A stretch of DNA of 64,000 bases from Terriglobia bacterium (GTDB lineage: Bacteria > Acidobacteriota > Terriglobia > 2-12-FULL-54-10): positions 32,001-96,000 of the forward strand of contig CAXVYR010000004.1 of the NCBI GenBank assembly GCA_963666975.2. Direction: 5' to 3'. The notes below the pieces were generated by a model. It did no database searches, had not been told where the DNA came from, and worked only from the letters and a program-made list of their open reading frames with translations. Below are positions 1-20,343 of this stretch, piece by piece. The position numbers and the translations under genes were made by a program. Position 1 is the first letter of the stretch, and the number at the start of each line of letters is the position of its first letter.

Positions 1-713
1 CTCACCGAAAAGCCCGCGTCCTTGATGCCTGCGTCCGCCTCCTCCGGGTCGCCTCCCAGCAGGTTGAAAGCTGCCAAGGGCCGGTCAATCCAGGGAAGTG
101 AATGGTTGTGCAGAGCATTCACCTTTCCAAAGCCTGCCCTCATCCTGCCGGCCTTGAGAAGAAAGCCTCCGGGCAGGGCCGGGAAAGTGATATAACCCTC
201 CTCCACCTCTACTCCTTCCTCGCCGAGCGCAACGAAGAAGTCGGCTCGGGCGTAGGGGTCGACGATAGCCTGGAGGCTGATCTCGCTCTCGGCCAGCGAC
301 AAGGCCGCCGACGGATCAACCCGGTTGTGTCCCGACGCTCCGGTAAAGTTGCCGATCACGCCGATGTCCGGGTTGAGTATCTTGGTTTGGGAAGCGGCTC
401 CTCCGTAGACCGGCAAGGGAGCGGACGGGGCCTGCAAATTTCCCGGCGATGCCGCCGGACTAGCCGGCTGGGCCGCAGAAGCAGTCGTCGCTGGAGCGGG
501 AACCTCTGGTGTGGAGACAGAAGTCGCAGACAAGACCGCGTGGAGCAACTCGACTTCCGCTTCGAGGGCATGGATACGCTCCTCCATGGCCCGGAAGCGG
601 GCTGCCAGATCATCTGCTGCGGCATCCACTCCTTGCGCCTCCACCTTCTGTACACAAAGAGCAGTAGAAACAAAACAAAGCAAGCAAACATACACAGCGA
701 GGGTCTTCAGCAT
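1..713 (-). CDS. Outer-membrane beta-barrel protein, putative metal (Zn-type) uptake porin/receptor; runs off the window edge
   Basis: Not in the ORF track (no stop in window). Hand translation from ATG 713 with GGAGG RBS: signal peptide MLKTLAVYVCLLCFVSTALC, coiled coil, Pro/Ala linker, then LNPDIGVIGNF...ESEISLQAIVDPYARADFF...VEEGY...GRMRAGFGKVNALHNH...WIDRP, a motif string I recognise from zinc-regulated OM receptor-like proteins. Confidence 0.7.
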   Translation of the reverse strand, partial: MLKTLAVYVCLLCFVSTALCVQKVEAQGVDAAADDLAARFRAMEERIHALEAEVELLHAVLSATSVSTPEVPAPATTASAAQPASPAASPGNLQAPSAPLPVYGGAASQTKILNPDIGVIGNFTGASGHNRVDPSAALSLAESEISLQAIVDPYARADFFVALGEEGVEVEEGYITFPALPGGFLLKAGRMRAGFGKVNALHNHSLPWIDRPLAAFNLLGGDPEEADAGIKDAGFSV

Positions 714-756
714 GTTTCCCCCTCCATAATGAAATTCAATGGCTGCGCACTGTGCC

Positions 757-855
757 GCGACAACAACTTTTTCAACAACTTTGTCGCGATCACAACTTTG
801 TCGCGCAACTTTGTCGCGATCACAACTTTGTCGCGATCACAACTTTGTCATGACA
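757..855. repeat. Imperfect tandem repeat, unit CAACTTTGTCGCGATCA (about 17 bp, 4-5 copies)
   Basis: Directly visible, intergenic. Confidence 0.9.
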
Positions 856-933
856 ACAGCAGGCAGCCGGACTGCCTCGCAAAGTGCGGAACAGGATTTC
901 ACCAGTAACGAGTCAATTGGAAAACGGATTCGT

Positions 934-1311
934 TTAGACGGAAGGAGGCGCGCGGATAAGACGGGCGGCCAGTGCAGTCTGCACAGTGGCCGTAGCGGGA
1001 ACTCGCTCAGTCATTTTGAGTGAGCCCCGTGGAGCCGTAAAAAGGGCACTGCTCAGGAAAGCGGGAAAATGGTGGTGATGGGATGAGGCGCAGCCATGGC
1101 CCGGTATTTTGCAATCGGAATGGCTGTCTGGCGCGCCGGTGCCGCCCTCCTCAGAGAGAGCGCCGATCGAGATGCTGGAATCGTGGACCGGATGAGGAGT
1201 CGCCACCAAGTGCAACCCCATATCCCAGACAAACAACAGCAGCAGCAGCGTAGCCAGACGCTGCCGGAAGAGCTTCGACCTGTTGGCCAACTGAAGGAAA
1301 CTTTGCATCAT
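934..1311 (-). CDS. Small exported Cys/His-rich protein with C-terminal RAPP motif (DUF2946/CruR/CutF-like leader)
   Basis: Hydrophobic segment LATLLLLLFVWDMGL, metal-binding-like HSDCKIPGHGCASSHHHH, ends IRAPPSV; co-oriented upstream of the OM protein. Confidence 0.75.
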   Translation of the reverse strand: MMQSFLQLANRSKLFRQRLATLLLLLFVWDMGLHLVATPHPVHDSSISIGALSEEGGTGAPDSHSDCKIPGHGCASSHHHHFPAFLSSALFTAPRGSLKMTERVPATATVQTALAARLIRAPPSV

Positions 1312-1312
1312 T

Positions 1313-1381
1313 GTTCAGTATCAGCGGTTCAGTATCACAGGTTCCGTATCAGCAGTTCAGTATCAGCGGTTCAGTTTCAGG
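1313..1381. repeat. Imperfect tandem repeat GTTCAGTATCAGCG (about 14 bp, 5 copies)
   Basis: Directly visible; abuts the start codon of the RAPP ORF. Confidence 0.9.
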
Positions 1382-1436
1382 AACCAGCTTCAATGACTAG
1401 TTTGAATGTAACAAGCCTCCTGGTTCCGGTCAAGGC

Positions 1437-3419
1437 TTACAACGCCCGCACAATCTCCTCCACGGCCAGAGGGTTTTCGAGAGCGGAGAGGTCGCCCGTT
1501 TCCTCTCCCAGGTAGGCGGCGCGGACGACGCGGCGCATGAGCTTGGCGTTGCGCGTCTTGGGCAGGTCGCCGACAAACTTCACCGTGCGGGGCTTCAGCG
1601 GCTTGCCTAGAGCTTGCGCCACGCACTCCCGCAGTTCTTCCCGCAGTTCATCTCGCCTCAGTTCGTCCCGCAGCGCTTCATCGCCCGCGCGGCCCGGCCT
1701 CAACACACAGAAACACGCCAGCTCCTGCCCCTTGACCGGGTCGGGAACTCCCACGCATGCCGCCTCGGCCACCGCTTCATGCCCCACCAGGACCGATTCC
1801 ACCTCGGCCGGGCCCAGGCGCTTGCCCGCCACCTTGATGGTGTCATCCGAGCGCCCCAGGATGTACCACATCCCGTCGCCGTCCACCGCCGCCCAGTCGC
1901 CATGCGTCCACAGACCAGGGAATCGCTCCCAATAGGTTTCCCGGTACCGCTCCGTGTCCTTCCAGAAGCCGCGCGTCATCCCGATCCAGGGACGGCGGAT
2001 CACCAGCTCGCCCACATGCCCTCGAACGGGCCGCCCGTTTTCGTCCACCACGTCGGCGGCCATGCCAGGCACAGGTCCGGAGAATGCCGTGGGCTTGAGC
2101 GGCAGCAGCAGGTTTCCTCCCAGGATGCCTCCTGAGATTTCCGTCCCGCCTGAGTAGTTGATGATGGGAAGCCGCCCGCCGCCGACCGTCTGAAAGAACC
2201 AGTTCCAGGGGTCTGGATTCCATGGCTCGCCCGTGGAGCCGAGAATCCGTAGCGAAGACAACTCGTGCTGCCTGACCGGCTCTTCGCCGTGCTGCATCAA
2301 GGAGCGCACCAAGGTGGGAGAGATTCCCAAAACCGAAACGCGGTGCCGCGCGACGAGGCTCCACAAACGGTCCGGGGCCGGGTAGTCCGGAGCGCCATCG
2401 TAGAGCAACAAGGTAGCCCCCAGCAACGTGCCGCCATAAACCAGCCATGGGCCCATCATCCAGCCCATATCGGTCAGCCAGTAAACCGTGTCTTCCCCGT
2501 GAACGTCCATGCAGTGGGCCATGTCTTGCGCCGCCTTGATGGGAAACCCGCAGTGAGTGTGCACCGCGCCTTTGGGCTCACCCGTGGTGCCTGAGGTGTA
2601 GATGAGCATCAGGGGATCTTCCGCGTCGGTAGTTTCGGTTGCACTCGGAGAGGACTCCGAAGAGATCAGATCGTGCCACCAATGGTCCCGTCCGTTTGTC
2701 CATGCTATTTTCATTCCGGTGCGACGGAGGACGATCAGGTGTTCGAGCGAGGGGGTAAGCGCGGCTGCCTGGTCGGCCACTTCCTTCATTGCAACCGTGT
2801 GGCCGCGCCGGTAGAAACCATCGGCGGTGAATAACGCCCTGGCCCCGGCGGAGGTCAGGCGCGAAGCAACCGCCTTGGCGCCGTAGCCGGAAAACAACGG
2901 CAAAAAGATAGCCCCGATCTTAGCGATGGCGAACAGAGCGATCACGATCTCCGGCGTCATGGGCATGAAGACGCCGATCACATCGCCCTTTTTCAACCCC
3001 AGTTGCCGCAGCGCCCCGGCCATTCGGCTGACTTCCCCGCAGAGCGCCCCGTAGGTCAGCGTGCGCTCGCCGCCCTCTTCACCCTCCCAGCGGATCGCAA
3101 TGCGGTCCTCGACTGGCGTGCCCATCCACTTGTCCAGGCAGTTGTCCACAATGTTCATGCGGCCGCCTATGCACCATCGCGCCCAGGGCTCGCCCTGCGA
3201 TGTGTCCAGGATTTTTCGGTAAGGCGTGGAGAAACGGATGCCGAGGTCCTGAATCACCGCCTCCCAGAACCATTCGATGTCTTCCGTTGACCGCCGCATG
3301 AGTTCTTCAAACGAGGCGATGTTGTGCGCCTTCATGAAGGCGGCCAGCCGGCTGCGCCCCGCCTGCTCCGGCGTAGGCCGCCAGACAATTTCTCCTCCGA
3401 AGTCCACTTGTGGCTCCAT
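1437..3419 (-). CDS. AMP-forming acyl-CoA synthetase (acetate--CoA ligase-like)
   Basis: YTSGTTGEPKG AMP-binding motif, GRSDDTIKVAGKRLG, LPKTRNAK. Confidence 0.92.
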   Translation of the reverse strand: MEPQVDFGGEIVWRPTPEQAGRSRLAAFMKAHNIASFEELMRRSTEDIEWFWEAVIQDLGIRFSTPYRKILDTSQGEPWARWCIGGRMNIVDNCLDKWMGTPVEDRIAIRWEGEEGGERTLTYGALCGEVSRMAGALRQLGLKKGDVIGVFMPMTPEIVIALFAIAKIGAIFLPLFSGYGAKAVASRLTSAGARALFTADGFYRRGHTVAMKEVADQAAALTPSLEHLIVLRRTGMKIAWTNGRDHWWHDLISSESSPSATETTDAEDPLMLIYTSGTTGEPKGAVHTHCGFPIKAAQDMAHCMDVHGEDTVYWLTDMGWMMGPWLVYGGTLLGATLLLYDGAPDYPAPDRLWSLVARHRVSVLGISPTLVRSLMQHGEEPVRQHELSSLRILGSTGEPWNPDPWNWFFQTVGGGRLPIINYSGGTEISGGILGGNLLLPLKPTAFSGPVPGMAADVVDENGRPVRGHVGELVIRRPWIGMTRGFWKDTERYRETYWERFPGLWTHGDWAAVDGDGMWYILGRSDDTIKVAGKRLGPAEVESVLVGHEAVAEAACVGVPDPVKGQELACFCVLRPGRAGDEALRDELRRDELREELRECVAQALGKPLKPRTVKFVGDLPKTRNAKLMRRVVRAAYLGEETGDLSALENPLAVEEIVRAL

Positions 3420-3683
3420 CTTGACACACTCCCCGCCTCTATCTTACTCGTAACTGGTCTTTAGCTTACTGGAAATACTGGTTGCGAATCGGCTTCCGCT
3501 GAATATGATTACTTTATAGATCATAACCTGTATCGCAAACATGAAATTCTGTTACGACCAAGAACTAGGTTTCTCCGAATGTAGCGCAAGAACTTACATC
3601 GGCTCGGAAGACACCGTTTTCGGCACATTGAGTTCCTAAGCCTCTACCAGTACAATTTCATCCATAACTACGTTGCTTAGCAG

Positions 3684-4688
3684 TTGATGAAATGCCACCG
3701 AAGGAACCTAGATATGCCGATCCCGAATGATGTTATCTTCGCCTGCCTCGCGCTGGATGGGCCATTTTTGGTCCACGGCGCGGGTGACGTGATTGTGTCC
3801 AATCCCGTATCTGTCCACCGGGCTGTACCCGTCCAACTCGACAACACTTGGCTTGATTGGCTTGGAAGTGTCCTAGTTGGGCAGTTGCAGCAGTGCCAAT
3901 TTGCTGTGCTTTCAACACAGCCATACACTGCCAGAAACCAAGGCAGGGCTGAGGAGGAACGCCGGGATATCCTGTATAAATTTCACTATGGGCTCCTCCT
4001 GCAAGGCATGGCGTACAGCCACGGCGGATTAGTGATAACTGGAGCCACGCCAAACGGTCAACTTGCTGTAGAGTCTGTATCTATCCCTCCGCCGCACCCG
4101 TTCCTAGACTACAGGCGAGCAGGGCAAATTTCTCGTGCGATCATAGATCGAGCGTCGGCACTCGTACCTATAATCAGAGGGATGTACGGTCGCCCACACC
4201 GATACATACGATTGAGGCGCGGACTCGTAGCGTGGTTACAAGGAATTCACTCTCTCAGCGCAGACGATAGACTTCATAATTTCATCCGGGCTATCGAAGC
4301 AATTACGAAGCCCGACAGGTACCGAATAACACGTACCTTTGTTGACCGTGCACAACTCTTTATTGGCCCAGGAGCCCGTAAAGAGTCCCTTCTGTTTCAG
4401 CTTTATAACCTTCGCAGTTGTATTGAGCACGTCAAGACATGGCGCAAGGAATTGCGTGTACCCCGCCCCCTTCTCCGAAACCAAGCCTTTGGACTACGCG
4501 CCTTTCAGGCAGAGGTTATTGCAAGCTCTATTTATATACGGATTTTTGAAAGACCAGACTTAATGCTCGCGCTGGCAACAGAGGCACAGTTCAATCGCTT
4601 TTGGAAAAGACCGTCATCTGAACGGGAGCTTTTATGGGGACCGCCCATTGACTTACGACGGGAACAAGCGCAGTGCTTTATTCCTTGA
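3684..4688 (+). CDS. Hypothetical protein with probable ApeA-like HEPN domain
   Basis: 334-aa ORF, visibly lower GC than flanks; DRLHNFIRAIEAI helix and LYNLRSCIEH (R-x4-H); start uncertain (3684-3714). Confidence 0.6.
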   Translation: MMKCHRRNLDMPIPNDVIFACLALDGPFLVHGAGDVIVSNPVSVHRAVPVQLDNTWLDWLGSVLVGQLQQCQFAVLSTQPYTARNQGRAEEERRDILYKFHYGLLLQGMAYSHGGLVITGATPNGQLAVESVSIPPPHPFLDYRRAGQISRAIIDRASALVPIIRGMYGRPHRYIRLRRGLVAWLQGIHSLSADDRLHNFIRAIEAITKPDRYRITRTFVDRAQLFIGPGARKESLLFQLYNLRSCIEHVKTWRKELRVPRPLLRNQAFGLRAFQAEVIASSIYIRIFERPDLMLALATEAQFNRFWKRPSSERELLWGPPIDLRREQAQCFIP

Positions 4689-4923: not shown

Positions 4924-6096
4924 TTACCGGCTGCGCCCTTCGTTCCGGCGGCGCAAAAAGGCGGGCACGTCGAGGTCTTGTTTCTCAAAGGAACCGGTTA
5001 AAACGCCGGGCGCGTTGGGAGACGAAGAAGCATTCCAGCCTCGGGAAGGCCCGTCCGAAGCCGCGCCAGCGGCCGCCGCACTGGCTTTCCGGCTGGCCCC
5101 TACCGTCTCGGGCTTGAAGCCGGTGGCGATCACGGTGATCTTGACTTGGTCCTTCATATTTTCATCCATCACCGCGCCAAACAGGATGTTGGCATCTTCG
5201 TGCGCCGCCTGCTGGATCAGCATGGAGGCCCCTTGCACCTCTTGCAGACGCAGGTTGCTGGAGCCGGTGATGTTGATCAGCACTCCGCGCGCGCCGTCAA
5301 TAGAAGCGTCCTCCAGCAAGGGGCTGGCGATGGCTTTGCTGGCGGCCTCCTGAGCGCGGTTGGTGCCGCTGCCTACGGCCGTCCCCATCACCGCGTAACC
5401 CATCCCTTGCATGACGGTTTTCACATCGGCGAAGTCGCGGTTGATGATTCCCGGAATGGTGATGATGTCGCTGATGCCCTGGACCGCCTGGCGCAAGATG
5501 TCATCGGCCAGGCGAAACGATTCGAAAAAGCCCGTGTCCTCGCCCATTTGCAGGAGGCGGTCATTGGGGATTGTGATCACGGTGTCCACGCTCTCGGCCA
5601 AGTCCGTCAGGCCTTGCTCGGCCTGCCGCGTCCGCCGCTTCCCCTCGAAGCTGAACGGCGTTGTGACCACGGCAACCGTCAGGGCGCCCAATTCATTGGC
5701 GAGGCTGGCGACAATGGGCGCGGCCCCGGTGCCGGTGCCTCCGCCCAGGCCCGCCGTCACGAAAACCATGTCGGCCCCTTCCAGCATTTCGATCAGCTTG
5801 TCGGTGTCCTCCAGGGCGGCTTTGCGCCCCAGTTCCGGATCGGCTCCCGCGCCGAGTCCCTTGGTGAGCTTGGCGCCGATTTGGATTTTGACGGGAGCTT
5901 GGGAAAGCTTCAAAGCTTGGAGGTCGGTGTTGGCCACCAGGAACTCGACGCCTTCCAGCCGCGCGTCGATCATGCGGTTGACGGCGTTGCTGCCGCCCCC
6001 GCCCACGCCAAGCACTTTGATCTTGGCCCCATTTTGCAGGCCTTCTTGAAACGAAAAGCGGATGGAATCTTCCACGGTTGCTTTCTCCGATTGCAT
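4924..6096 (-). CDS. ftsZ: Cell division protein FtsZ
   Basis: [17 protein letters not shown] tubulin signature, C-terminal DVPAFLR. Confidence 0.99.
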
Positions 6097-6265
6097 GGCG
6101 CCTTCCTCCGTAGAGAAATCGTTCTTTTCAGGCTACGACACGCTCCATGCCACAATACGATAAAGATGCGGCCAGCGGCAGACTATTTCCGCCGCCGAAC
6201 CATTTTGTTTCTTATCGGACACTCTCCGGGTTTTCCGGCAGGCGCGAACCGGCAAAACGCCTTTC

Positions 6266-7576
6266 CTACTTTTTCCCCGCGAGCAGGCTTTTCAAACGGC
6301 CTCCCCAGCTTTGGTTCTGATCCGCGCGCAGCCTCCGGACCTTCTGCCCGGAGAGCAACAATCCGACGAGCGTGGTGTAGTCCAGTTGATCTAAAGACGC
6401 AGGCAGGTCCGCGATCTTCGGCGGCAATCCGAGACGCGCCGGGCAGTCGAAGACCTGCTCGGCCAGATCGCACATTCCATTCAGGCGCGCTCCGCCGCCG
6501 GAAAGAACCACGCCCGCCCCCAGTTGCTGATCCAGATCGTACCGGCGCAGCTCATCCAGCGCAAGGCCCAGCAGCTCCTGCGCCCGCGGTTCCAGAATTT
6601 CCGAAAGCCTGCGGTGAGCCATAAACCGGGAAGGGCGGCCGCCCAGGCTGGGCACCTCAATCGAGGTGCCTTCGTGACTCCAGTCCGCCAGGACCGACCC
6701 GAACATCTTCTTGATCTTCTCCGCCTCCGGCAAAGGGGTGTGCAGACCGACCGCCACGTCGCTGGTGAAGTGGTCGCCTCCGACCGCGACCCCCGCGGAC
6801 ATCCGCAGGCTTCCCTGATGGTAGGCAGCCAGCTCGCAACTGCCTCCGCCGAGATCAACCACCAGCACCCCCAACTCCCGCTCCTCCGGAGCCAGTAGCG
6901 CTTCACCGGCCGCCAGGACTTCCAGCACCACGGCCTCCACCAGAAGCCCGGCGCGATTCGCGGCCGTGACTACGTTGTGGTTCGCGGTCACCGAAGCGCT
7001 GACAATATGGGCCTGGACCTCCAGATGCAAGCCCTTCATTCCAACCGGGTCGTAAATCCCCGGCTCGGAATCCACGCTGAATTCCTGCGGAACCACATGC
7101 AGGATTTCCCGGTCTTCCGGAAGCCGCAGCGGCCGGACGGCTTCCATCACGCGCCACACGTCCTCCCGGGTGACCTCGCGCGCGCGGGAAGAAAACCTCA
7201 GGCTGCCCCGGCCGGACGCACCCTGTATGAAAGGCCCTCCAACCCCCACCACCGCCGACTCCACCGGCACGCCCGCCGCATTCTCGGCTTCCGTCACAGC
7301 CTGTTGAATTGAGCCCACCACTTGGTCCAGGCTTGCAATCGTTCCCCGGTTCCACCCCTGGGAGTCCGCTTCGCCGAAACCGAGAAAACGCAATTGGGAA
7401 GCCTCCCCGGCTATGCTGCTGCCGGGAATGGAAGGCGAGGCTCCCGCAGAGATCGCAGAGTGACTATCTCGCGTGGCGCTGGCATTCTCACCGGGCGGGA
7501 GCATCTCGGCCACCAGCACTCGCGTCTTGGTGCTGCCCAAATCCAGGGATGCCAAATACCGGCTCTTATCGCTCAT
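6266..7576 (-). CDS. ftsA: Cell division protein FtsA
   Basis: DLGSTK, VDLGGG, GGDHFTSD; dcw position; about 30-aa low-complexity insert near the N-terminus. Confidence 0.97.
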   Translation of the reverse strand: MSDKSRYLASLDLGSTKTRVLVAEMLPPGENASATRDSHSAISAGASPSIPGSSIAGEASQLRFLGFGEADSQGWNRGTIASLDQVVGSIQQAVTEAENAAGVPVESAVVGVGGPFIQGASGRGSLRFSSRAREVTREDVWRVMEAVRPLRLPEDREILHVVPQEFSVDSEPGIYDPVGMKGLHLEVQAHIVSASVTANHNVVTAANRAGLLVEAVVLEVLAAGEALLAPEERELGVLVVDLGGGSCELAAYHQGSLRMSAGVAVGGDHFTSDVAVGLHTPLPEAEKIKKMFGSVLADWSHEGTSIEVPSLGGRPSRFMAHRRLSEILEPRAQELLGLALDELRRYDLDQQLGAGVVLSGGGARLNGMCDLAEQVFDCPARLGLPPKIADLPASLDQLDYTTLVGLLLSGQKVRRLRADQNQSWGGRLKSLLAGKK

Positions 7577-8517
7577 AAAGATGCTTCGGATGGAGTTACA
7601 TTGGGACGGGATGCATTGGGGCGAGACTGTTCCGCTGAGGAACCGAAATCCGCCGGGGGCGCGGACCCTCTGGCTGGGTCTGCGTTAATGACGACTTGCC
7701 CTCCGTAGCGGAGGTCGATGGATTGGATGCTCGGGAACTTTTGTTTCCACTCCTGGATGTGGCCGAGGTAAATCCGGTAGCGGGCCAAGAAGTCCTCCTT
7801 ACCTAAATGAAGCAGAATGGCCCCGGCGGAATCAGCCACCACCACGCGGGCATCGCGCGGGTCGCGGAGGTCCACCTCGGAGATTTTTTCGCTGTATGGC
7901 GGATCACCGCTATTCAATTCCTCCATCACCGCCTGAAACAGTTGCATTCGGGAACGCCGCGTTTCGGGAGAATCGTCGCCAGAAATTCCCCGGACCACCG
8001 GAAACGTGAAGACGGCTTTCTGCGGGTAGTCCAGAATGACTCCCTCTTCATCCACCAACGCCATGCCGGCAGGGCTCCAGACAAACGCGACGGGGACCCT
8101 TTCCTGGACCTCAACCCAGAGCCGGTTGGGAAAGATGCGCCCCACTGCGGCGGACCGCACCCAGGGCAACTGCTCGATTTCCCTTCCTCGCTGGCGGAGA
8201 GGAGCCCGCAGAATGCTCTTTCCCCTATCCGCTAAAAACATCTCCTCCATCTGGCTTTGGGCGACAAACTCAGCGCCATGAATCTCAATAGAGGCCAGAT
8301 GAAAGCGGGGGTTATAAAGACCGAACTCCACCGCAGACCAGACCACCCAGACGGTGGCGCTCACCAGCAGGACCGCCAGGAAACCCCTCCAGACACGGCC
8401 AGCCAGGCCCCGGCGGAAGCGGTCCTTGCGGACTTTCACCGGGCGCTGGCGGCGGAGAGAGGCGGACTCTTCCGGCTTGCCGTAATACCGGGCGGTCTCA
8501 AAGCGTCTTTCACTCAT
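7573..8517 (-). CDS. ftsQ: Cell division protein FtsQ/DivIB
   Basis: TM helix, POTRA (LPWVRSAAVGRIFPNRL), IDLRY; upstream of ftsA. Confidence 0.93.
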   Translation of the reverse strand: MSERRFETARYYGKPEESASLRRQRPVKVRKDRFRRGLAGRVWRGFLAVLLVSATVWVVWSAVEFGLYNPRFHLASIEIHGAEFVAQSQMEEMFLADRGKSILRAPLRQRGREIEQLPWVRSAAVGRIFPNRLWVEVQERVPVAFVWSPAGMALVDEEGVILDYPQKAVFTFPVVRGISGDDSPETRRSRMQLFQAVMEELNSGDPPYSEKISEVDLRDPRDARVVVADSAGAILLHLGKEDFLARYRIYLGHIQEWKQKFPSIQSIDLRYGGQVVINADPARGSAPPADFGSSAEQSRPNASRPNVTPSEASL

Positions 8518-8613
8518 CTTTGATTACTCATCTTTGCTTACTCATCTTGCGTTTACTCTTCTTGCATTTCTCATTTTGCACTCAGCTTGGCGGCGGTCGA
8601 TTTCTCCAGACCC

Positions 8614-9522
8614 TCAATTTCTCCAAACAATGACTTCTTCTTCCAGCTCCACTCCGTAAGCTTCGAGAACGCGCTCTTGAATTTTTTCCATCAAACGAAA
8701 AATGTCGGCGGCGGCAGCCTGATGGCGGTTCACGATGAAGTTGGCATGGCGCTCGCTGATGACCGCCCCTCCCTGGCGCAATCCCTTCATTCCCAACTGG
8801 TCGATCATCTTTCCCGTCGAGAGGCCCGGCGGGTTCTTGAAGATGCATCCCGCGCTCTTTTCCTTGAGCGGCTGCGAGCCGAGTCGCCGCCGGTTCAGCG
8901 CTTTCACCTCCGAGAGAATCGCGGAGTAAGGCTTCTCGGGCAGCTCCAGCGTGACCGACAGCATGACGTCGTCCGGGGCGAAGCCGCTTTGCCGGTAGGC
9001 GAAGCCAGCCGCAGCTGCCGGCAAATCTTCCCGGACTCCCGCCGCCCCCCGGAAGACGGAGACGGACCGGACCAGCGGCCCGATCTCGGTTCCGTAGGCC
9101 CCGGCGTTCATCCGCAGCGCCCCGCCCACCGAACCGGGAACCCCCACCAACCCTTCCATGCCGCCGAGATTCCGTTTGGCGCACTCCATCACCGAGCGGC
9201 CCAAGGCGGACGCAGAAGCGATCCGGACAGTGTGGCCGTTAAATACCAGATCGTGCGGGCCGGGAACTAATTGCAGCACCACTTTCCGCAGCGGCTCGTC
9301 CGGAACCAGCACGTTGGTTCCGCCCCCTAGCAGGGACCAGGAGATTCCGCGCTGCCGGAGCCCTTCCACTAAAGGCTCCAGGGCGTCCACGCGGTGGAGG
9401 AAAAAGAAATCGGCCTCGCCTCCCACGCCGAGCGAGGTGTAGCGCCCCAATCGCTGACGGGGCAGAAAGCGAGCGCCCCAGTCCTCTGCCTGCTTCACGA
9501 ATTCCGCGTCATGAACCATCAT
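8614..9522 (-). CDS. murB: UDP-N-acetylenolpyruvoylglucosamine reductase
   Basis: GGGTNVL, PGSVGGALRMNAGAYG, SAGCIFKNP, HANFIVN; start set at ATG 9522. Confidence 0.96.
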   Translation of the reverse strand: MMVHDAEFVKQAEDWGARFLPRQRLGRYTSLGVGGEADFFFLHRVDALEPLVEGLRQRGISWSLLGGGTNVLVPDEPLRKVVLQLVPGPHDLVFNGHTVRIASASALGRSVMECAKRNLGGMEGLVGVPGSVGGALRMNAGAYGTEIGPLVRSVSVFRGAAGVREDLPAAAAGFAYRQSGFAPDDVMLSVTLELPEKPYSAILSEVKALNRRRLGSQPLKEKSAGCIFKNPPGLSTGKMIDQLGMKGLRQGGAVISERHANFIVNRHQAAAADIFRLMEKIQERVLEAYGVELEEEVIVWRN

Positions 9523-9738
9523 GCGAGAACCATCATGCGAGAACCATCGGCCTGCACCAACAGGCTCAAGGTGAGTATCCAGTGTCTGAACAAGCATTCG
9601 CCACAGAGTCACCAAGGCGCAGAGTAGCAACACCGTTGGACAAACCAACCGAAAAGCAGGTTATCCGTGCCAGCCAGGCTCAGCACCTTCTCCGGCGGCA
9701 TTTTCTATTTTCCTCTCCGTGTCTCCATGGCTCCGTGG

Positions 9739-11169
9739 CTAACGGCCCGTTCCGCGAACAACCGGAGCTTCCAGTGATTTACCGGCGCTCTGGCGCAGAT
9801 AATCCAGAAAATTTTCTCCTACTTTCCAGACGCTGCCCGCTCCGAGCGTCAGCAGCAGATCGCCGGGCTGGACGGTTTCAGAAAGCCGCTTCAGCAGATT
9901 ATCACCGGCAGGCAGATACTCCGCCTTGGAGTGGCCCGCTTGGCGCATCCGCTCAACCAACGCTTTGGCCGAGACGCCTTGAATCGGCGGTTCTCCCGCC
10001 GGGTAAATATCCAGAACAAACAGAGAATCACAGTGAGTAAAGCACGCGGCAAAATCATCGAGCAACAGCGCCGTCCGCGAGTACCGATGCGGCTCAAAAA
10101 CCACGATCACGCGGCGGTAATCGCAATCGCTAGCGGCATCGAGCGTGGCGCGAATCTCGGTGGGATGATGCCCATAGTCATCGACCACCGTAATGCCGTT
10201 CACCCTTCCCCTCACCTGGAAGCGGCGCTCCACGCCGCCAAAGGCGGCCAGCCCCTGGCGAATTTTTTCCGGCTCCAGCTTCAATTCAAGCCCCACGGCG
10301 ACGGCAGCCATGGCGTTCAGGACGTTGTGCCGTCCGGGCATTTGCAGGGTAAACAGGCCCATGTCCGCTCCCCGGAATTTCAAACGGAACTGGGAATGGA
10401 AATGTCCGCAGAGAATATCCTCAGCCAATAAATCCGGCGGCGCACCCTCGCGGGCGGCTGTCCCGTAGGTCACCACCCGGCGAGTCGTGTGCGGCAGAAT
10501 GGCGCGGATATTTTCCTCGTCCAGGCACGCGATGGAAGCCCCGTAGAAAGGAACCTGATTGGCAAACTGCGCATACGCCCGGCGAAGCTCCTCGAGCGAT
10601 CCGTAACAATCCAGATGCTCGCGGTCAATTGAGGTGATGACGGCGAGGATCGGAGCCAAGTGCAGAAACGAGCGGTCGCTTTCATCCGACTCCACCACCA
10701 TGAAATCCCCGTTGCCGAGCCTGGCGTTGCTGCCCATGCTGTTCACGCGGCCGCCCACCACCAGGGTGGGGTCCAGCTCCGCTGCCGCCAGCACGGCGGC
10801 CACCATGGAGGTGGTGGTGGTCTTGCCGTGGCTACCCGCTATAGCAATTCCGAATTTCAGGCGCATCAACTCCGCCAGCATTTCTCCCCGCGCAATGACG
10901 GGAATTTGCAGGCGGCGGGCTTCTGCTATTTCCGGGTTGCCGGCCCTGACGGCCGAACTGGTCACCACGGCCTCGGCTCCGTCGACGTGGCTGGAATGAT
11001 GGCCCTCATGGATGCGCGCGCCGAGTTGCTCCAGACGGTCGGTAACCGGAGAGAGCTTCCAATCGGAGCCGGAGACCTCGTAACCGAGATTCAGCAGCAC
11101 CTCGGCGATGCCGCTCATGCCGATGCCTCCAATGCCTATAAAGTGAACGCGCCGGGCCGTAAAGAACAT
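9739..11169 (-). CDS. murC: UDP-N-acetylmuramate--L-alanine ligase
   Basis: HFIGIGGIGMSGIA, GSHGKTTT, DDYGHHPTE. Confidence 0.98.
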   Translation of the reverse strand: MFFTARRVHFIGIGGIGMSGIAEVLLNLGYEVSGSDWKLSPVTDRLEQLGARIHEGHHSSHVDGAEAVVTSSAVRAGNPEIAEARRLQIPVIARGEMLAELMRLKFGIAIAGSHGKTTTTSMVAAVLAAAELDPTLVVGGRVNSMGSNARLGNGDFMVVESDESDRSFLHLAPILAVITSIDREHLDCYGSLEELRRAYAQFANQVPFYGASIACLDEENIRAILPHTTRRVVTYGTAAREGAPPDLLAEDILCGHFHSQFRLKFRGADMGLFTLQMPGRHNVLNAMAAVAVGLELKLEPEKIRQGLAAFGGVERRFQVRGRVNGITVVDDYGHHPTEIRATLDAASDCDYRRVIVVFEPHRYSRTALLLDDFAACFTHCDSLFVLDIYPAGEPPIQGVSAKALVERMRQAGHSKAEYLPAGDNLLKRLSETVQPGDLLLTLGAGSVWKVGENFLDYLRQSAGKSLEAPVVRGTGR

Positions 11170-11232
11170 CTCGTCTGCCTAAGCTAGCTCCTTTTTTGCT
11201 AAAAGCAGGTTCATAACCTGTTTTCAGAGATT

Positions 11233-11332
11233 GTCAGGGCACGGTTTCAACCGTGCCGGAAAACGCTCCAACCTCAGTGGCTTAAGCCGCTGAGGTGCTA
11301 TCCTGAAGGCACGACTAAAGTCGTGCCCTGAC
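11233..11332. repeat. REP/MITE-like palindromic element (family B) between murG and murC
   Basis: Perfect 11-bp terminal IR GTCAGGGCACG/CGTGCCCTGAC enclosing three palindromes (GGCACGGTTTCAACCGTGCC, CCTCAGTGGCTTAAGCCGCTGAGG, GGCACGACTAAAGTCGTGCC). Confidence 0.85.
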
Positions 11333-11379
11333 GGGACAAAGTTAGTGATGAAACAGTTTGTAAACAATCCCATCACCCC

Positions 11380-12465
11380 CTAGCCTCCGCTATGCAGCCG
11401 GGCCAGCCGTTCCAACTCATCCGCAATGCGCGAGGCCGTTTCCGGATGCGCCGTGGAGCGGATGCGCGACTCCATTTGCTCCAGCCGTTCGGGTTCTCCG
11501 AGCAATTCCTGGAGCACTGCGAAAAACCTCTCCCCGGTCAGTTCCCGGTCCGGAATCAGGCGCGCCGCGCCAATGTCGGCAAGAGCCCGTGCATTGCGCA
11601 ACTGATGCTGGTTGGCGGCGCTGGGAAAGGGCACCAGAACCGCAGCCCTGCCCGCCGCAGCCAACTCCGCCAGCGTATTGGCCCCAGCGCGGCAAACCAC
11701 CACATCCGCGCTGGCAAAAGCCTTCGGCATTTCCTCGATATAGGGGAGAACCTCGGCGCAGAGCGAATGTTTTTCATACTCTTGCTTCACTGCATTATAT
11801 TCACTTTGTCCGGTTTGATGCACGAGGAATAGATTCTCCTTGTTCCGGGCCAGCAGCGGCAAGGCTTCCACCGCCGCCCGGTTCAGCGACCGTGCGCCCT
11901 GGCTTCCTCCGAAGATGAGCACCGTAAAGGGCGGGTGATGGCGCTTCGGCTCCGCCGAAAAAAACTCCCGCCGCACAGGGACTCCCACCACCGAGGGCGC
12001 CGCCGAGGCAAAGCAGGAAGCCGTCTGGGGAAAAGCCAGGAAAGCGCTCGTTACATAAGGAGCAGCCCAGCGGTTTGCCAAGCCGGGAAACGCGTTGGGC
12101 TCAAGCGCCGCCAGGGGAATCCCGGCAATGCCCGCGGCCAGCATCACAGGCCCTGCCGCGTATCCTCCGATTCCCAACACCACGTCGGGCTGGAATTTTT
12201 CCTGGAGCCGGGAAGCTTGCCACAAGGCGCGCGGCAGACTGAGAAAATTGAGCAGACGGGTCACAGGCGGCTGCCCTTGCAGCGCGCCGACCTCCACCCA
12301 CTCCAGCGGGAAGCCGGCTGCGGGCACCAGTTTGTTTTCCACTCCCCGGGCCGTGCCGACAAAAAGCACCTGGTGCGACGGGTTGCGCTCGGAAAGTTCC
12401 TGGGCCACTACTAAGGCGGGGATGACATGGCCCCCCGTTCCGCCCGCAGCCAGCAGGAATCTCAT
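11380..12465 (-). CDS. murG: MurG glycosyltransferase
   Basis: GGTGGHV, GGSQGAR, HQLRNA. Confidence 0.98.
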   Translation of the reverse strand: MRFLLAAGGTGGHVIPALVVAQELSERNPSHQVLFVGTARGVENKLVPAAGFPLEWVEVGALQGQPPVTRLLNFLSLPRALWQASRLQEKFQPDVVLGIGGYAAGPVMLAAGIAGIPLAALEPNAFPGLANRWAAPYVTSAFLAFPQTASCFASAAPSVVGVPVRREFFSAEPKRHHPPFTVLIFGGSQGARSLNRAAVEALPLLARNKENLFLVHQTGQSEYNAVKQEYEKHSLCAEVLPYIEEMPKAFASADVVVCRAGANTLAELAAAGRAAVLVPFPSAANQHQLRNARALADIGAARLIPDRELTGERFFAVLQELLGEPERLEQMESRIRSTAHPETASRIADELERLARLHSGG

Positions 12466-12489
12466 AGTTCCGTTTCCATCCGCCTATCG

Positions 12490-13581
12490 TTATTCTGTGT
12501 GTTGGGTAACGTTCAGCAGGATTCCGGTAGCAACCATGCTGAAAAACAGGGAGCTCCCCCCGTAGCTGATAAAAGGCAGCGGGATGCCTTTCGGGGGAAT
12601 CAAACCCAGCACTACGCTTATATTCACAAGGGCCTGGCCCACCACCATGCAGGTTAACCCGGCGGCCAGGTAACGCCCGAAATCATCCGGCGCCAGCAGG
12701 CTCGCGCGCCATCCGCGCCAAAAATACAGGCCGAACAGGCCCAGCAGCAGCGCGGCTCCTCCCAGCCCCAGCTCTTCGGCCGTCACAGAGAAAATAAAAT
12801 CGGTATGCGGAGCCGGCAGAAAAAACAGTTTTTGCTTTCCGTTCATCAAGCCCAACCCGGTCAGCCCGCCGGTCCCCACGGCGATAAAAGATTGGATGAT
12901 TTGAAACCCGCTCCCTTGGGGATCGGCATAGGGATCGAGAAACGCCAGGATGCGGTTGCGGCGGTAGCCGACTTGAAAAATCAAAAGGTAGAGCGCGGGC
13001 AGACTGGCCAGCAACAGATACGCGAAATACCGCAGGTGCAGACCCGCCAGGAAAAACATCACCGCCGCGATCAGCACAATGACAATGGGCGTTCCCAGGT
13101 CCGACTCCCGCAGGATCAAGCCCACCACCAGGCCTACCAAGGCAAGGGCGGGCAATAAGGTGCGGGTAAAATCATTGATGTATTGGCGGCGTTTCTCCAG
13201 AAAGTATGCCAAAAACAAAACCAGCATCAGCTTGGCGAACTCCGACGGTTGCAGTGAAAAAGACCCCCACCGGAGCCACCGGTTGGTTTGTTGATGAGCG
13301 TCGGTCATCAGCACGACAGCCAGCAGCACAAAAGCGAGAAATATGCCGGGGAAAATGACGGACGGGTGCCGCAGGTGACGATAATCGAGACGCATCATCA
13401 GCAGCATCGCCGCCATCCCCAATCCAGCCCATGCCATTTGCCGCCAAAAAAAGGTGGGGGGGCTCCCGTACTGGTCGGTGGCCAGGAGCGCGGAACTGCT
13501 GAAGACCATCACCAACCCGAAGAAAACCAGCGAGAGGGTCACGGTAAACAAAATGCGGTCGGTTGAATAACGCTTGGCCAT
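12490..13581 (-). CDS. ftsW: SEDS peptidoglycan polymerase FtsW
   Basis: QPSEFAK, PAPHTDFIF, LPFISYGGSS; multi-TM. Confidence 0.97.
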   Translation of the reverse strand: MAKRYSTDRILFTVTLSLVFFGLVMVFSSSALLATDQYGSPPTFFWRQMAWAGLGMAAMLLMMRLDYRHLRHPSVIFPGIFLAFVLLAVVLMTDAHQQTNRWLRWGSFSLQPSEFAKLMLVLFLAYFLEKRRQYINDFTRTLLPALALVGLVVGLILRESDLGTPIVIVLIAAVMFFLAGLHLRYFAYLLLASLPALYLLIFQVGYRRNRILAFLDPYADPQGSGFQIIQSFIAVGTGGLTGLGLMNGKQKLFFLPAPHTDFIFSVTAEELGLGGAALLLGLFGLYFWRGWRASLLAPDDFGRYLAAGLTCMVVGQALVNISVVLGLIPPKGIPLPFISYGGSSLFFSMVATGILLNVTQHTE

Positions 13582-13713
13582 CCTTATTTCTTTTTCCTCA
13601 TCCTCTTTCCCCTTTTCTTTTTTCCTTTTCCGCCGTCCTGATGCAGAACCGGATTGCGCGGGCGGCCTGCTGACTAACGCAGCTTTTTATCGCAACTTCT
13701 TAACGTAACGTTT

Positions 13714-14847
13714 TCAACGCAGCTTCAGCGTGGAAAGCGAGAACAACGCCAGCACCAAAGCCGCAATCCAGAAGCGGATGATGACCTTGGACTCGCTCCA
13801 GCCCTTCATCTCAAAGTGGTGATGCAACGGAGCCATATGGAACAGCCGCCGTCCCCACAATTGAAAGGAAGCCACCTGCAAGATCACCGACACAGCTTCG
13901 GCCACAAAGACTCCCGCGATCAGCAGCAGCAAAATCTCCTGCTTGATGATGACGGCCACCGTGCCGATGGCGCCTCCCAGGGCGAGGGAACCCACGTCGC
14001 CCATGAAGATCTCCGCCGGGTGAGAGTTGTACCAGAGGAAACCCATGCAGGCTCCGACCATCGCGCCGCAAAAGACGGTCACCTCCGCCACCTGCGGAAT
14101 GTATTGCAGCTCCAGGTAGCGGGCAAAGACGGCGTGTCCGGTGACGTAGCACAGGACGGTCAGCGCTCCGGCGGCGACGATGCTGCAACCGGCCGCCAGC
14201 CCGTCCAGCCCATCGGTGAGGTTGACGGCGTTGCTGGCCCCGACGACGACCAGCACTACAAACAGGAGGAAGAAACTAAAGGCCAGCGGATAAGTGTACG
14301 GATTTCCCATCAGGCTGTGGATCAGCAGGTCCGGCGTGAAGCTTTTGAAGAACGGCACGCTCAGGTTCGTCAAGTAGTTCCCCCGTATGGTCAAAAAGAC
14401 CAGCCCCATCCCCACCAGAAAACTGATCAGGATTTGCAGATAGAGCTTGGTTCTGCCGGAGAGACCCTGGCTGCGCTGGCGGCGAACCTTGTAGTAGTCG
14501 TCCAGGAATCCTACCAACGCGAACCCCAGCGTGGCCAGGATCACCATCCACACCAGGACATTCGAGAGATTTGCCCACAGCAACGTCGGCACCAGGATAG
14601 CCACGTTGATCAGGACGCCCCCCATGGTCGGGGTCCCGGCCTTATCCTGGTGCGAACGGGGTCCCTCTTCCCGAATGTACTGCCCGATCTGAAATTCCTT
14701 CAGGCGCGCGATGAGCCAGGGACCTACCACCAGGCAAATCAGCAGAGCCGTCATGCTGGCGAAGGCAGTCCGGAAGGTCACGTACCGAAAGACACGGAAC
14801 GGCGTGAAATAAGGGAAAAGCTGCTCGAAAAAAAGATAGTAAAGCAC
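13714..14847 (-). CDS. mraY: Phospho-N-acetylmuramoyl-pentapeptide transferase
   Basis: TPTMGG, NAVNLTDGLDGL, FMGDVG, APLHHHFE; GTG start at 14847. Confidence 0.98.
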   Translation of the reverse strand: MLYYLFFEQLFPYFTPFRVFRYVTFRTAFASMTALLICLVVGPWLIARLKEFQIGQYIREEGPRSHQDKAGTPTMGGVLINVAILVPTLLWANLSNVLVWMVILATLGFALVGFLDDYYKVRRQRSQGLSGRTKLYLQILISFLVGMGLVFLTIRGNYLTNLSVPFFKSFTPDLLIHSLMGNPYTYPLAFSFFLLFVVLVVVGASNAVNLTDGLDGLAAGCSIVAAGALTVLCYVTGHAVFARYLELQYIPQVAEVTVFCGAMVGACMGFLWYNSHPAEIFMGDVGSLALGGAIGTVAVIIKQEILLLLIAGVFVAEAVSVILQVASFQLWGRRLFHMAPLHHHFEMKGWSESKVIIRFWIAALVLALFSLSTLKLR

Positions 14848-14864
14848 TGGATCGCACCTAATTG

Positions 14865-16340
14865 TTAACGCCGGGGCAAAGTGTTCCTTTGCCAGACCTC
14901 CCACACTCTTTCCAGATGCACCGCCCGCGAAGCCTTCAACAACACCGCATCTCCCTCCCGCCATCGGTCCTGTAACTCTTGCGCCGCTTCTTCGGCGGAA
15001 TCAAAATGAGCCAGAGCTTCCGGACGCAGCCCGGCCGCTCGCGCACCGTCGGCAAAAGGCCGCGCGCCGTCGCCGACCGTAAAGAGACCGTCAAAGGAAA
15101 GCTCGCCCAGCCGCTGGCCACAGCGATAATGCAGCGTCTCAGCAGACGGACCTAACTCCCGCATCTCCCCCAGAACCGCAAAGCGCCGCCGGGCGTCGAG
15201 CGAGGCGACGGAAACCAGCATCGCCTCGAGCGCTTCCGGGTTGGAGTTGTAGCAATCGTTCACCACTATCGCCCCGTTCGCCAGCCGAACTATCTCGCCG
15301 CGCATGGGAGAGGGCCGCAAGGATTGGACGGCTTCCCGCAAGGATGCCGGCGGCAGGCCGAAGCAATAACAGGCAGCCAGAGCGGCCAGCAGATTGAGCA
15401 CATTGTGCCGTCCGAGCAAAGGCAGGTGAAAGGGCTCAGCGGAAGACTCCTCCGGCGCCGTGGCTCGGGACGGCGTTTTTTCTTTCCAGGCCAAACCCGG
15501 AGGCACAGCCTGAAACGGCTTTGCCGGCACAGTGAACCGAAATCCTCCGCTGCCGTTTCGTTCCAGGTCCTGCGCCTGGAAATGGGCTGGCCCCGAAAAG
15601 CCGAAGTAAAGGACACGGCCTGGAAGCCGTTCGCCGAAAGAGCAAACCCGTGGGTCCTCCGCGTTGAGAACGGCCCATGCATGGAACCCGAGCGCCTCAA
15701 TCAACTCGAGCTTGGCGCGAGCAATGGCCTCGACATCCGGGAAAAACTCCAGGTGAACGGCGCTGACGTTGGTCACGACCCCCACGTCGGGAGCCGCCAG
15801 CCCTGCCAGCAACCGAATCTCGCCGGGGCCGGACATGCCCATCTCAAAAACGCCCACCTCGGTTTCCGGTTGCAGGCGCAGCAGCGAAAGCGGCAGACCA
15901 AAGTGGTTGTTGAGGTTCCCCTCGCTGGCCAGCACTCGAAAGCGCGTGCCGAGCAGCGAGGCGATCATCTGCTTGGTAATGGTCTTCCCGGCGCTGCCCG
16001 TCACGGCCACCAGCGGCCCTCCCCAACGGCGGCGCACTGCTGCTGCCAGCCTTTGCAGCGCTTCCAGAGGATTCTGCACCCCGAGTAGTTTCGCCTGGCT
16101 GCCGGCCGGGAAATCCTTGCGGCGGGAGAAGTCGACCACCGCGCCTGCGGCCCCGGCTGCCAGCGCTGCCGAAACAAAAGCATGGCCGTCCAACCTTTGT
16201 CCTGGAACGGCGAAAAACAGCTCCCCCGGCTGAATCGTCCGCGAGTCGATGGAATAACCCGTCGCCCGCAAATTTGGCTGTGAGGGCGGCGCTGTCTCCA
16301 TCATCATCATCCGGGCAATTTCACCGAAGCTGAGTTCCAT
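14865..16340 (-). CDS. murF: UDP-MurNAc-tripeptide--D-Ala-D-Ala ligase
   Basis: TGSAGKT, NDCYNSNP, LLKASR. Confidence 0.96.
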   Translation of the reverse strand: MELSFGEIARMMMMETAPPSQPNLRATGYSIDSRTIQPGELFFAVPGQRLDGHAFVSAALAAGAAGAVVDFSRRKDFPAGSQAKLLGVQNPLEALQRLAAAVRRRWGGPLVAVTGSAGKTITKQMIASLLGTRFRVLASEGNLNNHFGLPLSLLRLQPETEVGVFEMGMSGPGEIRLLAGLAAPDVGVVTNVSAVHLEFFPDVEAIARAKLELIEALGFHAWAVLNAEDPRVCSFGERLPGRVLYFGFSGPAHFQAQDLERNGSGGFRFTVPAKPFQAVPPGLAWKEKTPSRATAPEESSAEPFHLPLLGRHNVLNLLAALAACYCFGLPPASLREAVQSLRPSPMRGEIVRLANGAIVVNDCYNSNPEALEAMLVSVASLDARRRFAVLGEMRELGPSAETLHYRCGQRLGELSFDGLFTVGDGARPFADGARAAGLRPEALAHFDSAEEAAQELQDRWREGDAVLLKASRAVHLERVWEVWQRNTLPRR

Positions 16341-16348
16341 GGACGCTT

Positions 16349-17872: not shown

Positions 17873-18019
17873 TCTATTTGGACCGCTTGAACAGCATGAG
17901 CCGCTGTATCGGATATGCGGGGGGGCGCTGAAACCCCAGCTTCCCGCAACCGGCGCGCTCCTCGCTGGCTGGAAAGACAAAGCAACACGTTCGATTATAC
18001 CTCCTGACCCCATCCCCGG

Positions 18020-20215: not shown

Positions 20216-20343
20216 GTCCCCTGGCAGTCGAGCGTTCCAAAATAAAAGTTCGGCACGGCACTCGCCGGGAGTTTCACGCTGACTCGAATTCTTCGCGAGT
20301 TTTCTAAGCGACCCGTACGTAAAATCGCCCGTGGCAGCTATCG

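Follow-up and report, generated by a model that had tools for sequence, protein, structure and literature searches.

A conserved RAPP-tailed leader with a histidine tract precedes outer-membrane genes in Acidobacteriota and is a candidate metal-responsive arrest peptide

Metal-responsive leader peptides have been described in the DUF2946 group of small proteins. CruR of Bordetella pertussis (Bp2923) carries a CXXC motif followed, after 45 residues, by RAPP, a spacing that is functionally important and holds to within 1–2 residues; the RAPP lies three residues from the end of the protein and a 162-bp intergenic region precedes the gene for a TonB-dependent transporter (PMC9426467). Arrest by CruR has been shown in vitro (PMC12992588). 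In CutF of Rhodobacter capsulatus, a DUF2946 protein, stalling at a proline motif opens a stem-loop over the ribosome-binding site (RBS) of the next gene (10.1101/2025.02.05.636593). More widely, upstream open reading frames (uORFs) that end in RAPP or RGPP and carry localisation signals are described in many phyla, upstream of TonB-dependent receptors and metal-homeostasis genes (PMC12992588). Here we analyse a 64,000-nt stretch of a Terriglobia bacterium genome (contig CAXVYR010000004.1, positions 32,001 to 96,000; hereafter the window) and a 125-aa open reading frame (ORF) within it that ends in RAPPSV. We put the probability that this ORF is a CruR-type regulatory leader, that is a uORF encoding a metal-responsive RAPP arrest peptide, at roughly 60%. 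The class of arrest leaders has already been published, and the His-tract, probably zinc-linked form is probably new.

The leader and its motifs are placed as follows.

934–1311 (minus strand): leader ORF of 125 aa, stop codon included, starting MMQSF and ending LIRAPPSV before TAA
1201–1257 (minus strand): putative membrane or signal-anchor helix, hydrophobic, residues 19–37, from the AlphaFold2 model and conserved columns
1060–1113 (minus strand): conserved Cys/His patch, residues 67–84, CKIPGHGCASSHHHHFPA, from column conservation
943–954 (minus strand): RAPP codons CGC GCG CCT CCT (R120-A121-P122-P123), followed by TCC GTC TAA

An earlier note on this DNA had described a 125-aa ORF with a RAPPSV end, 220 nt upstream of a co-oriented gene, and the coordinates and translation agree with it. 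Residues 64–81, translated from 934–1311, read HSDCKIPGHGCASSHHHH. The basic residues R11, K13, R16 and R18 precede the hydrophobic helix, which includes D30 and H34. AlphaFold2, supplied with the family alignment, predicts a single helix over residues 3–36, with predicted local distance difference test (pLDDT) scores of 92–97 over residues 11–30; the remainder of the leader is predicted to be disordered and to have no fold.

The leader belongs to a family of 68 proteins from Acidobacteriota, with identities down to about 25%. A word-indexed search returned 19 homologues (76–100% identity), and when 1.84 billion representatives were searched exhaustively with a profile, 31 clusters, formed at 50% identity, came up at E ≤ 1e-3. 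A second profile search gave 44 hits, all at E ≤ 1e-22, and none between 1e-22 and 10; because of this gap the family is sharply bounded. Where source names are given, the homologues derive from Acidobacteria, Terriglobia or Acidiferrales metagenome-assembled genomes. Residue conservation was counted over P0001 and 49 distant members (n = 50). In the helix, D30 is present in 50/50 and H34 in 46/50. The Cys/His patch retains C67, P70 and H72 (47/50 each), H78–H81 (48–50/50) and P83 (43/50), and the tail retains R120 (48/50), P122 (47/50) and P123 (46/50). C74 is missing from most distant members, so the conserved ligand pattern is C-x4-H-x5-HHHH and not C-x6-C. Thus, the His tract proposed in the earlier note stands, and the C-x6-C motif that it paired with it does not. 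That note had also named a lack of conservation of RAPP and Cys/His as one of the findings that would speak against its reading; both are conserved, with invariant spacing.

Of the 68 leaders, 55 have a RAPP tail, 6 an RGPP tail, 2 an RSPP tail and 1 a RAPS tail; the motif is missing from the remaining four, two of which are sequences that stop within it. In 58 of the 64 leaders with a motif, 2–3 residues follow it. The first His of HHHH lies exactly 42 residues before the Arg of the tail motif in every scorable member (63/63), and the stretch of 38 residues that separates HHHH from RAPP shows little sequence conservation but a constant length (63/63). RAPP and RGPP are the most arrest-prone forms reported in PMC12992588; RSPP, itself reported to cause arrest, was permissive in part when placed in ApdA/ApdP mutants (PMC12992588). 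The same source places arrest tetrapeptides among the most depleted in bacterial proteomes, and its source data give frequency biases in Acidobacteriota of 0.117 for RAPP and 0.076 for RGPP. Judged from sequence, natural variation of the tail in the leader family is confined to the arrest-competent set RAPP/RGPP/RSPP. In the loci for which DNA is available, the first proline of the motif is encoded by CCT in 5/5 and the second in 4/5. In ten neighbouring genes only 25 of the 303 Pro codons (8%) are CCT, which is therefore a rare codon, and since three of the five loci are close relatives the count amounts to about three independent observations.

Between the window and L001 leaders, nucleotide differences number 13, 7 and 23 at the three codon positions, a third-position bias. 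The window and the four other loci contain 1426 stop-to-stop frames of ≥50 aa; seven of them have R[AG]PP within their last 16 residues, and five of these seven are the leaders. The sequence comparisons confirm the leader ORF as a real, conserved gene.

Loci with DNA are the window and L001–L004, the four loci returned by a genome scan with a 12-sequence alignment; a sixth, that of MBI3894939.1, was taken from the supplement of PMC12992588. The gene order at the five loci with DNA is given below, with the part of the downstream gene that lies in the window.

Window locus: leader; porin-like barrel gene next, cut by the window edge
L001: leader 88% identical to that of the window; porin-like barrel gene, then genes for a ZnuA-family (PF01297) binding protein and an ABC-3 permease (Pfam)
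L004: leader 36% identical to that of the window; porin-like barrel gene, then genes for a ZnuA-family (PF01297) binding protein and an ABC-3 permease
L002: leader 82% identical to that of the window; TonB-dependent receptor gene, then transposase and AbiE genes
L003: leader 44% identical to that of the window; TonB-dependent receptor gene, then a 194-aa ORF without a family
3–713 (minus strand): first 237 codons of the porin-like outer-membrane gene of the window, ATG at 713–711, running off the window

A co-oriented outer-membrane gene directly follows the leader in 6/6 loci, encoding a porin-like barrel in three and a TonB-dependent receptor in three. The leader is separated from this gene by 220 (window), 161, 137, 132, 53 and 113 nt, the last at the MBI3894939.1 locus, where the gene is a TonB-dependent receptor. 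MBI3894939.1 has the same transmembrane, Cys/His and RAPP motifs, and likewise the 42-residue His-to-Arg spacing, as counted on the printed sequence. For L004, the best NCBIfam match of the binding protein is AztC, and that of the permease is an anchored-repeat-type ABC permease, with AztB second; all of these matches fall short of the curated cut-offs. The TonB-dependent receptors of L002 and L003 both match ZnuD best (E = 9e-66 and 5.5e-71), below its cut-off. By these sequence matches, every informative downstream annotation points to zinc-type uptake, and this variant of the leader is probably zinc-linked. Of the metals named in the earlier note (Zn, Ni and Co), zinc is favoured by a ligand set rich in His and by neighbours that resemble ZnuD, AztC and ZnuB; Mn, Ni or Co may nevertheless be the metal sensed.

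Some further features of these loci were seen. The ZnuA-like and ZnuB-like genes (L001 5649–7721; L004 9751–11558) have no gene for an ABC ATPase (ZnuC) with them in the stretches examined. Three loci have a gene for a Mu-like Gam protein within a few kb on the downstream side of the leader operon: L001 (9189–10521), L003 (12031–12879) and L004 (13098–14517). In L001 and L004 a GemA gene accompanies it. The L002 leader (8001–8378) shows 3 synonymous versus 15 non-synonymous codon differences from that of L001 and is flanked by transposase genes, with AbiE toxin–antitoxin genes downstream; this copy may be decaying or under relaxed constraint. A 433-aa ORF further downstream in L002 was considered as a relative of the porin and proved unrelated.

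The full-length form of the porin-like protein (P0020) has 436 aa, ends in Phe and has at least 1580 relatives of about 420–440 aa; Pfam and NCBIfam scans of P0020 gave no family. Its AlphaFold2 model (mean pLDDT 70.5) comprises a signal helix, a coiled coil and a 16-strand β-barrel, with a Pro/Ala-rich segment of low confidence (pLDDT below 50). In Foldseek, ranks 1–5 were OprO, MOMP and OprP (E about 4e-10 to 2e-9, template-modelling (TM) score about 0.46–0.49), and DcaP followed at rank 15 (E = 1.7e-8, TMq 0.45). The modelled likeness to OprO/OprP-type porins is at the level of the fold only. Of the putative metal-uptake outer-membrane β-barrel in the earlier note, the barrel is thus supported by the model; for metal uptake the only pointer is the position of the gene before ZnuA/ZnuB-like genes.

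Using the stall geometry of PMC10951233 and PMC12992588, we propose that the ribosome would stall at P122/P123. HHHH would then lie 41–44 residues, and C67 55 residues, behind the P-site proline; as the tunnel is spanned by about 30 extended residues (PMC4571824), the Cys/His patch would be positioned just outside the tunnel exit. In the absence of metal, most likely zinc, the stall would persist. The stalled ribosome would cover the last 15 nt of the leader ORF and the downstream outer-membrane uptake gene would stay expressed, which the stall could bring about by keeping CCUCCUUCC off the downstream Shine–Dalgarno (SD) sequence, by blocking Rho in the intergenic region, or both. When metal is present, its binding to the emerging Cys/His patch would compact or pull the chain and release the arrest, termination would follow two codons later, and downstream expression would drop. 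We chose this polarity, in which metal turns the gene off, because the neighbours have an uptake function and because CruR provides a precedent.

Comparison with CruR and the DUF2946 proteins reveals a shared design. All are small proteins of about 125–145 aa. The N terminus carries an export or membrane signal, a putative one in the leader; a metal-ligand motif keeps a constant distance to the C-terminal RAPP, which is found 2–3 residues before the stop; the remainder is poorly structured; and a long intergenic region leads up to an outer-membrane uptake gene. In the window leader, C74 and R120 are separated by 45 residues, equal to the CXXC–RAPP gap of CruR. The differences lie in the ligands, which are C67, H72 and H78–H81 in a C-x4-H-x5-HHHH arrangement, CXXC not being present in the family; in the neighbours, which point to zinc and not copper; in the downstream gene, which encodes a porin-like barrel rather than a TonB-dependent transporter in half of the present loci; and in the lineage, Acidobacteriota here, whereas DUF2946 is found mostly in Proteobacteria. 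CutF resembles the leader in its C-terminal proline motif, in its export, which is putative for the leader, and in RBS pairing, for which a comparable arrangement is predicted here in three loci. However, CutF combines CXXXC with PPP, responds to copper and switches on a detoxifying oxidase with the metal present, whereas the leader has a RAPP tail, mainly His ligands and downstream uptake genes. The uORF class of PMC12992588 has in common with the leader the C-terminal RAPP/RGPP, a localisation signal (putative in the leader) and the position upstream of a regulated gene. ApdA and ApdP (PMC10951233, PMC7897499) differ in that they regulate Sec or YidC components and not porin-like barrels or TonB-dependent receptors. 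A parallel for the sensing step is found in ADR1a zinc finger–SecM constructs, in which zinc-dependent folding of a nascent Cys2His2 finger releases SecM arrest (PMC4571824). The principle proposed here, a zinc-binding Cys/His element at a defined distance from an arrest motif, is the same; those constructs are artificial, with a folded 29-residue finger acting at 24–26 residues inside the tunnel, whereas the patch of the leader occurs naturally, 41–55 residues away from the P site, and no fold is predicted for it.

The relationship of the leader to named families was also explored. Pfam and NCBIfam scans of the leader found no family. In 32 members scanned at E ≤ 10, four gave sub-threshold matches to PF11162 (DUF2946), weak and in register (best E = 0.037); P0140 and P0142 reached 15.2 bits against a cut-off of 23.7 and aligned up to the C-terminal end of the profile. 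In a protein atlas the nearest neighbours are unnamed clusters, and the nearest named ones are DUF2946-type (0.94–0.95) with low shared-feature counts, which is a lead and not evidence. It is possible that the leader and DUF2946 are distantly related or that they converged. Four leader members also match DUF6153 (PF19650) below threshold and at nearly full length (best E = 1.4e-4, 23.1 bits against a cut-off of 27.7), and our literature search found no paper on DUF6153. Nor did it find a zinc-linked or His-tract RAPP leader. The earlier note knew of no description of such a leader in this lineage, which was too strong a claim: RAPP/RGPP uORFs are described across phyla, and at least one member of the present family, MBI3894939.1, is listed without comment among the RAPP uORFs in the source data of PMC12992588. 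In the main text of that paper, zinc, ZnuA and porin have 0 occurrences, and the HHHH family and its fixed spacing are not singled out.

Several results, on the leader and its neighbours as well as on the RNA, weigh against the leader being a metal-responsive arrest peptide of the CruR type. We infer stalling, metal binding and regulation by the leader alike, together with the identity of the metal, the polarity, the compartment of sensing and the coupling of the stall to the next gene. The gathering score of PF11162 was reached by none of the 51 members scanned (P0001, P0017 and 49 others), so that homology to CruR is unproven and the DUF2946 match for which the earlier note suggested a search did not materialise; a profile search with the family alignment likewise returned no hit carrying any Pfam domain, PF11162 included. 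Just five loci with DNA entered the comparison, three of them closely related. The AztC and ZnuD matches fall far below their curated cut-offs and do not settle the metal, and the ZnuA family also carries Mn and Fe. The leader ATG has no obvious SD, and the L002 leader is changed at near-invariant residues (G32E, H34R and P70Q).

The RNA evidence concerns the region between the leader and the next gene, which in the window contains the following.

714–933 (minus strand): leader–porin intergenic region of 220 nt, with a GC hairpin (862–876) and tandem repeats
718–725 (minus strand): SD of the porin-like gene, GGAGGGGG, with complementarity to the Pro-Pro-Ser codons
775–849 (minus strand): 17-nt tandem repeat, 4.6 copies, self-complementary with G-U pairs and forming long hairpins

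On the minus strand, the interval from the leader to the porin-like gene has no predicted intrinsic terminator. CCUCCUUCC is complementary to the downstream SD and the pairing is present in the minimum free energy (MFE) fold; in the fold of 700–954 (MFE −88 kcal/mol, z = −2.7), CUCCUUCCGU is paired with the SD region. The ensemble probability of pairing between the SD and the Pro-Pro-Ser codons is 0.71 for the window, 0.96 for L001 and 0.58 for L002. Shuffling of the interior reached the observed pairing in 11, 21 and 23 of 100 cases, respectively, and the pairing is thus not clearly above shuffles, as a stretch of CCUCCU would pair with any SD. For L003 and L004 this pairing has a probability of 0.00. 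A simulated stalled-ribosome footprint gave a clear release of SD pairing only in L001 (0.99 to 0.25), with smaller changes in the window (0.73 to 0.54), L002 (0.81 to 0.51) and L003 (0.81 to 0.73) and none of this kind in L004 (0.70 to 0.71). A rut signal is not clear from the first 60 nt of the intergenic region, in which C/G counts are 16/13, 16/13, 15/11, 20/11 and 10/13 in the five loci.

The earlier note had proposed that the Pro codons pair with the downstream RBS. The complementarity is real and the pairing is predicted in the window, L001 and L002; it fails in L003 and L004, 11–23 of 100 shuffles match it, and as a conserved switch it is not supported beyond these three close relatives. 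The MFE folds show other pairings in the remaining loci: in L003 the SD pairs with the Ser-Leu-Pro-Leu codons just after RGPP, and in L004 the leader stop-codon region pairs with the first codons of the next gene. In these models, pairing of the leader 3′ end with the initiation region of the next gene is possible as a general theme. By analogy with CruR, a Rho-dependent route would be equally open.

Two further features of the intergenic region were observed. The 17-nt repeat has three exact copies, against 0 expected, all within 775–849, and its unit is not found elsewhere in the window; L001 has about 1.5 copies, which suggests a recent expansion specific to the window genome. A U-rich stretch, GTTTTTCCGATT, directly after the leader stop is identical in L001 (4407–4425) and L004 (8366–8390), despite leaders about 36% identical. 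The window and L002 have near-identical versions of this stretch, which could serve for pausing or binding.

The same arrest leader might work with the opposite, CutF-like polarity, metal on the exported patch inducing or prolonging the stall and thereby turning the downstream gene on. CutF has a similar architecture and is reported to stall with periplasmic copper bound, opening the stem-loop over the next RBS (10.1101/2025.02.05.636593), and the conserved membrane helix of the leader means that the patch could be sensed during export. However, the downstream genes are uptake-like (porin, ZnuA/AztC-like, ZnuB-like and ZnuD-like) and not detoxifying, their induction by excess metal would be counter-productive, and CruR, which heads an uptake operon, has the other polarity; we regard this version as unlikely. 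Similarly improbable is that the leader acts as a stable accessory protein, anchored in the membrane and binding metal in the periplasm as a chaperone or as a relay from the outer-membrane channel to ZnuA, its RAPP having no regulatory role. The conservation of the family, a Cys/His patch typical of zinc sites, the polar D30 and H34 in the membrane helix and the constant adjacency to uptake genes would all suit such a protein, and accessory and regulatory roles could coexist. Yet it leaves aside that the 38 residues between HHHH and RAPP are poorly conserved and of fixed length (63/63), that everything after the helix is predicted to be disordered, that the tail is limited to arrest-competent tetrapeptides that proteomes avoid, and that a rare Pro codon is found there in all loci.

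A RAPP tail with an N-terminal localisation signal is also the hallmark of monitoring substrates (PMC12992588, PMC10951233), and the leader might accordingly monitor secretion or insertion, as ApdA, ApdP and SecM do, its stall being released by the pulling force of export and not by metal. We find this less plausible again: none of the downstream genes encodes a Sec or YidC component, about 85 residues separate the end of the membrane helix from the stall site, much more than an insertion pull would span, and the conserved, precisely spaced Cys/His patch would be left without a role. That the ORF and its RAPP arose by chance in a long non-coding leader could be argued from the start codon, which has no clear SD, and from the lack of a Pfam or NCBIfam match. 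This explanation is already refuted by conservation and we give it practically no weight, given 68 homologues down to about 25% identity with conserved motifs, the third-position bias against L001, and R[AG]PP tails in only 2 of 1421 other frames.

The region upstream of the leader contains the following features.

1405–1433 (minus strand): promoter-like site, TTGACC–17 nt–TACATT with a TG preceding the −10, located after the acs stop codon and ahead of the leader
1313–1380 (minus strand): five copies of a 12-nt core, CTGATACTGAAC, with a 14-nt period, in the presumed 5′ untranslated region (UTR), ending 1 nt before the leader ATG

The promoter-like site is the sole sigma-70-like site in 600–1600 (one found against 0.3 expected from shuffles), and its −35 and −10 hexamers are both kept in L001 and, with one change, in L002. 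The stop codon of an acetyl-CoA-synthetase-like (acs) gene at 1437–3419 lies just before it, and an acs-like gene is found upstream of the leader in 4/5 loci. The core CTGATACTGAAC has five matches against 0.10 expected, and related 5′ UTR repeats with other copy numbers occur in L001 (about 3985–4024) and L002 (about 7962–8000). These repeats could serve in translation or as an array to which a protein binds. An 8-nt inverted repeat, GGAACCAG...CTGGTTCC (1420–1427 and 1380–1387, minus strand), flanks the −10 hexamer and the presumed transcription start, and in L002 an A-T to G-C double change within it retains pairing. L003 (7913–7936) and L004 (7934–7958) share a box of about 25 nt, CATCCAAYTGTGATARYCTTTGGA-like, directly upstream of the leader start. 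Its TGTGATA core recurs in the 5′ UTR repeats of the window, with TGTGATC in the intergenic repeats. A Zur-type repressor, for example, may use the box as its operator; among the 50 larger ORFs of the window there is no Fur/Zur-family gene. An Rfam scan of 1–4000 (E ≤ 1) found no known RNA element, the only matches being mir-34 and IRES_Bip at chance level and far below their gathering scores.

Beyond the leader locus, a dcw cluster occupies 4924–21716 (minus strand), with mraW, a PBP transpeptidase gene, murE/murF-like ligase genes, mraY, ftsW, murG, a murC-like gene, murB, ftsQ and ftsZ. An unassigned plus-strand ORF (3684–4688) separates acs from this cluster, which is located a few kb upstream of the acs–leader locus. 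Two IS3-type copies, each with a transposase HTH ORF and an rve integrase ORF and with identical Pfam scores, are found at 56618–57969 and 62085–63436 (minus strand). They bracket an amidohydrolase gene (58965–60857) and two unassigned ORFs and may form a composite transposon.

Returning to the leader as a CruR-type arrest peptide, we tentatively put forward a more specific and less secure proposal for the family as a whole. It would be a natural nascent-chain zinc sensor: zinc would compact a patch of one Cys and five His, set exactly 42 residues before RAPP, at the exit of the ribosome, so that the stall ends and zinc uptake through the outer membrane is turned off. DUF2946 (CXXC, copper), the present family and perhaps DUF6153 would then share a modular design: the arrest module and its distance to the ligand motif stay the same, and an exchange of that motif alters the metal specificity. 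The family would be the first case for a metal other than copper. To our knowledge, copper is the only metal for which a nascent peptide, CruR or CutF, has been shown to act as a post-transcriptional sensor. The 42-residue ruler would offer a clean natural means of relating ligand binding outside the tunnel to the peptidyl-transferase centre. If true, a His-tract leader on zinc-type uptake genes would carry this kind of sensing over to another phylum and a second metal, and would add a layer of control beside Zur-type repression.

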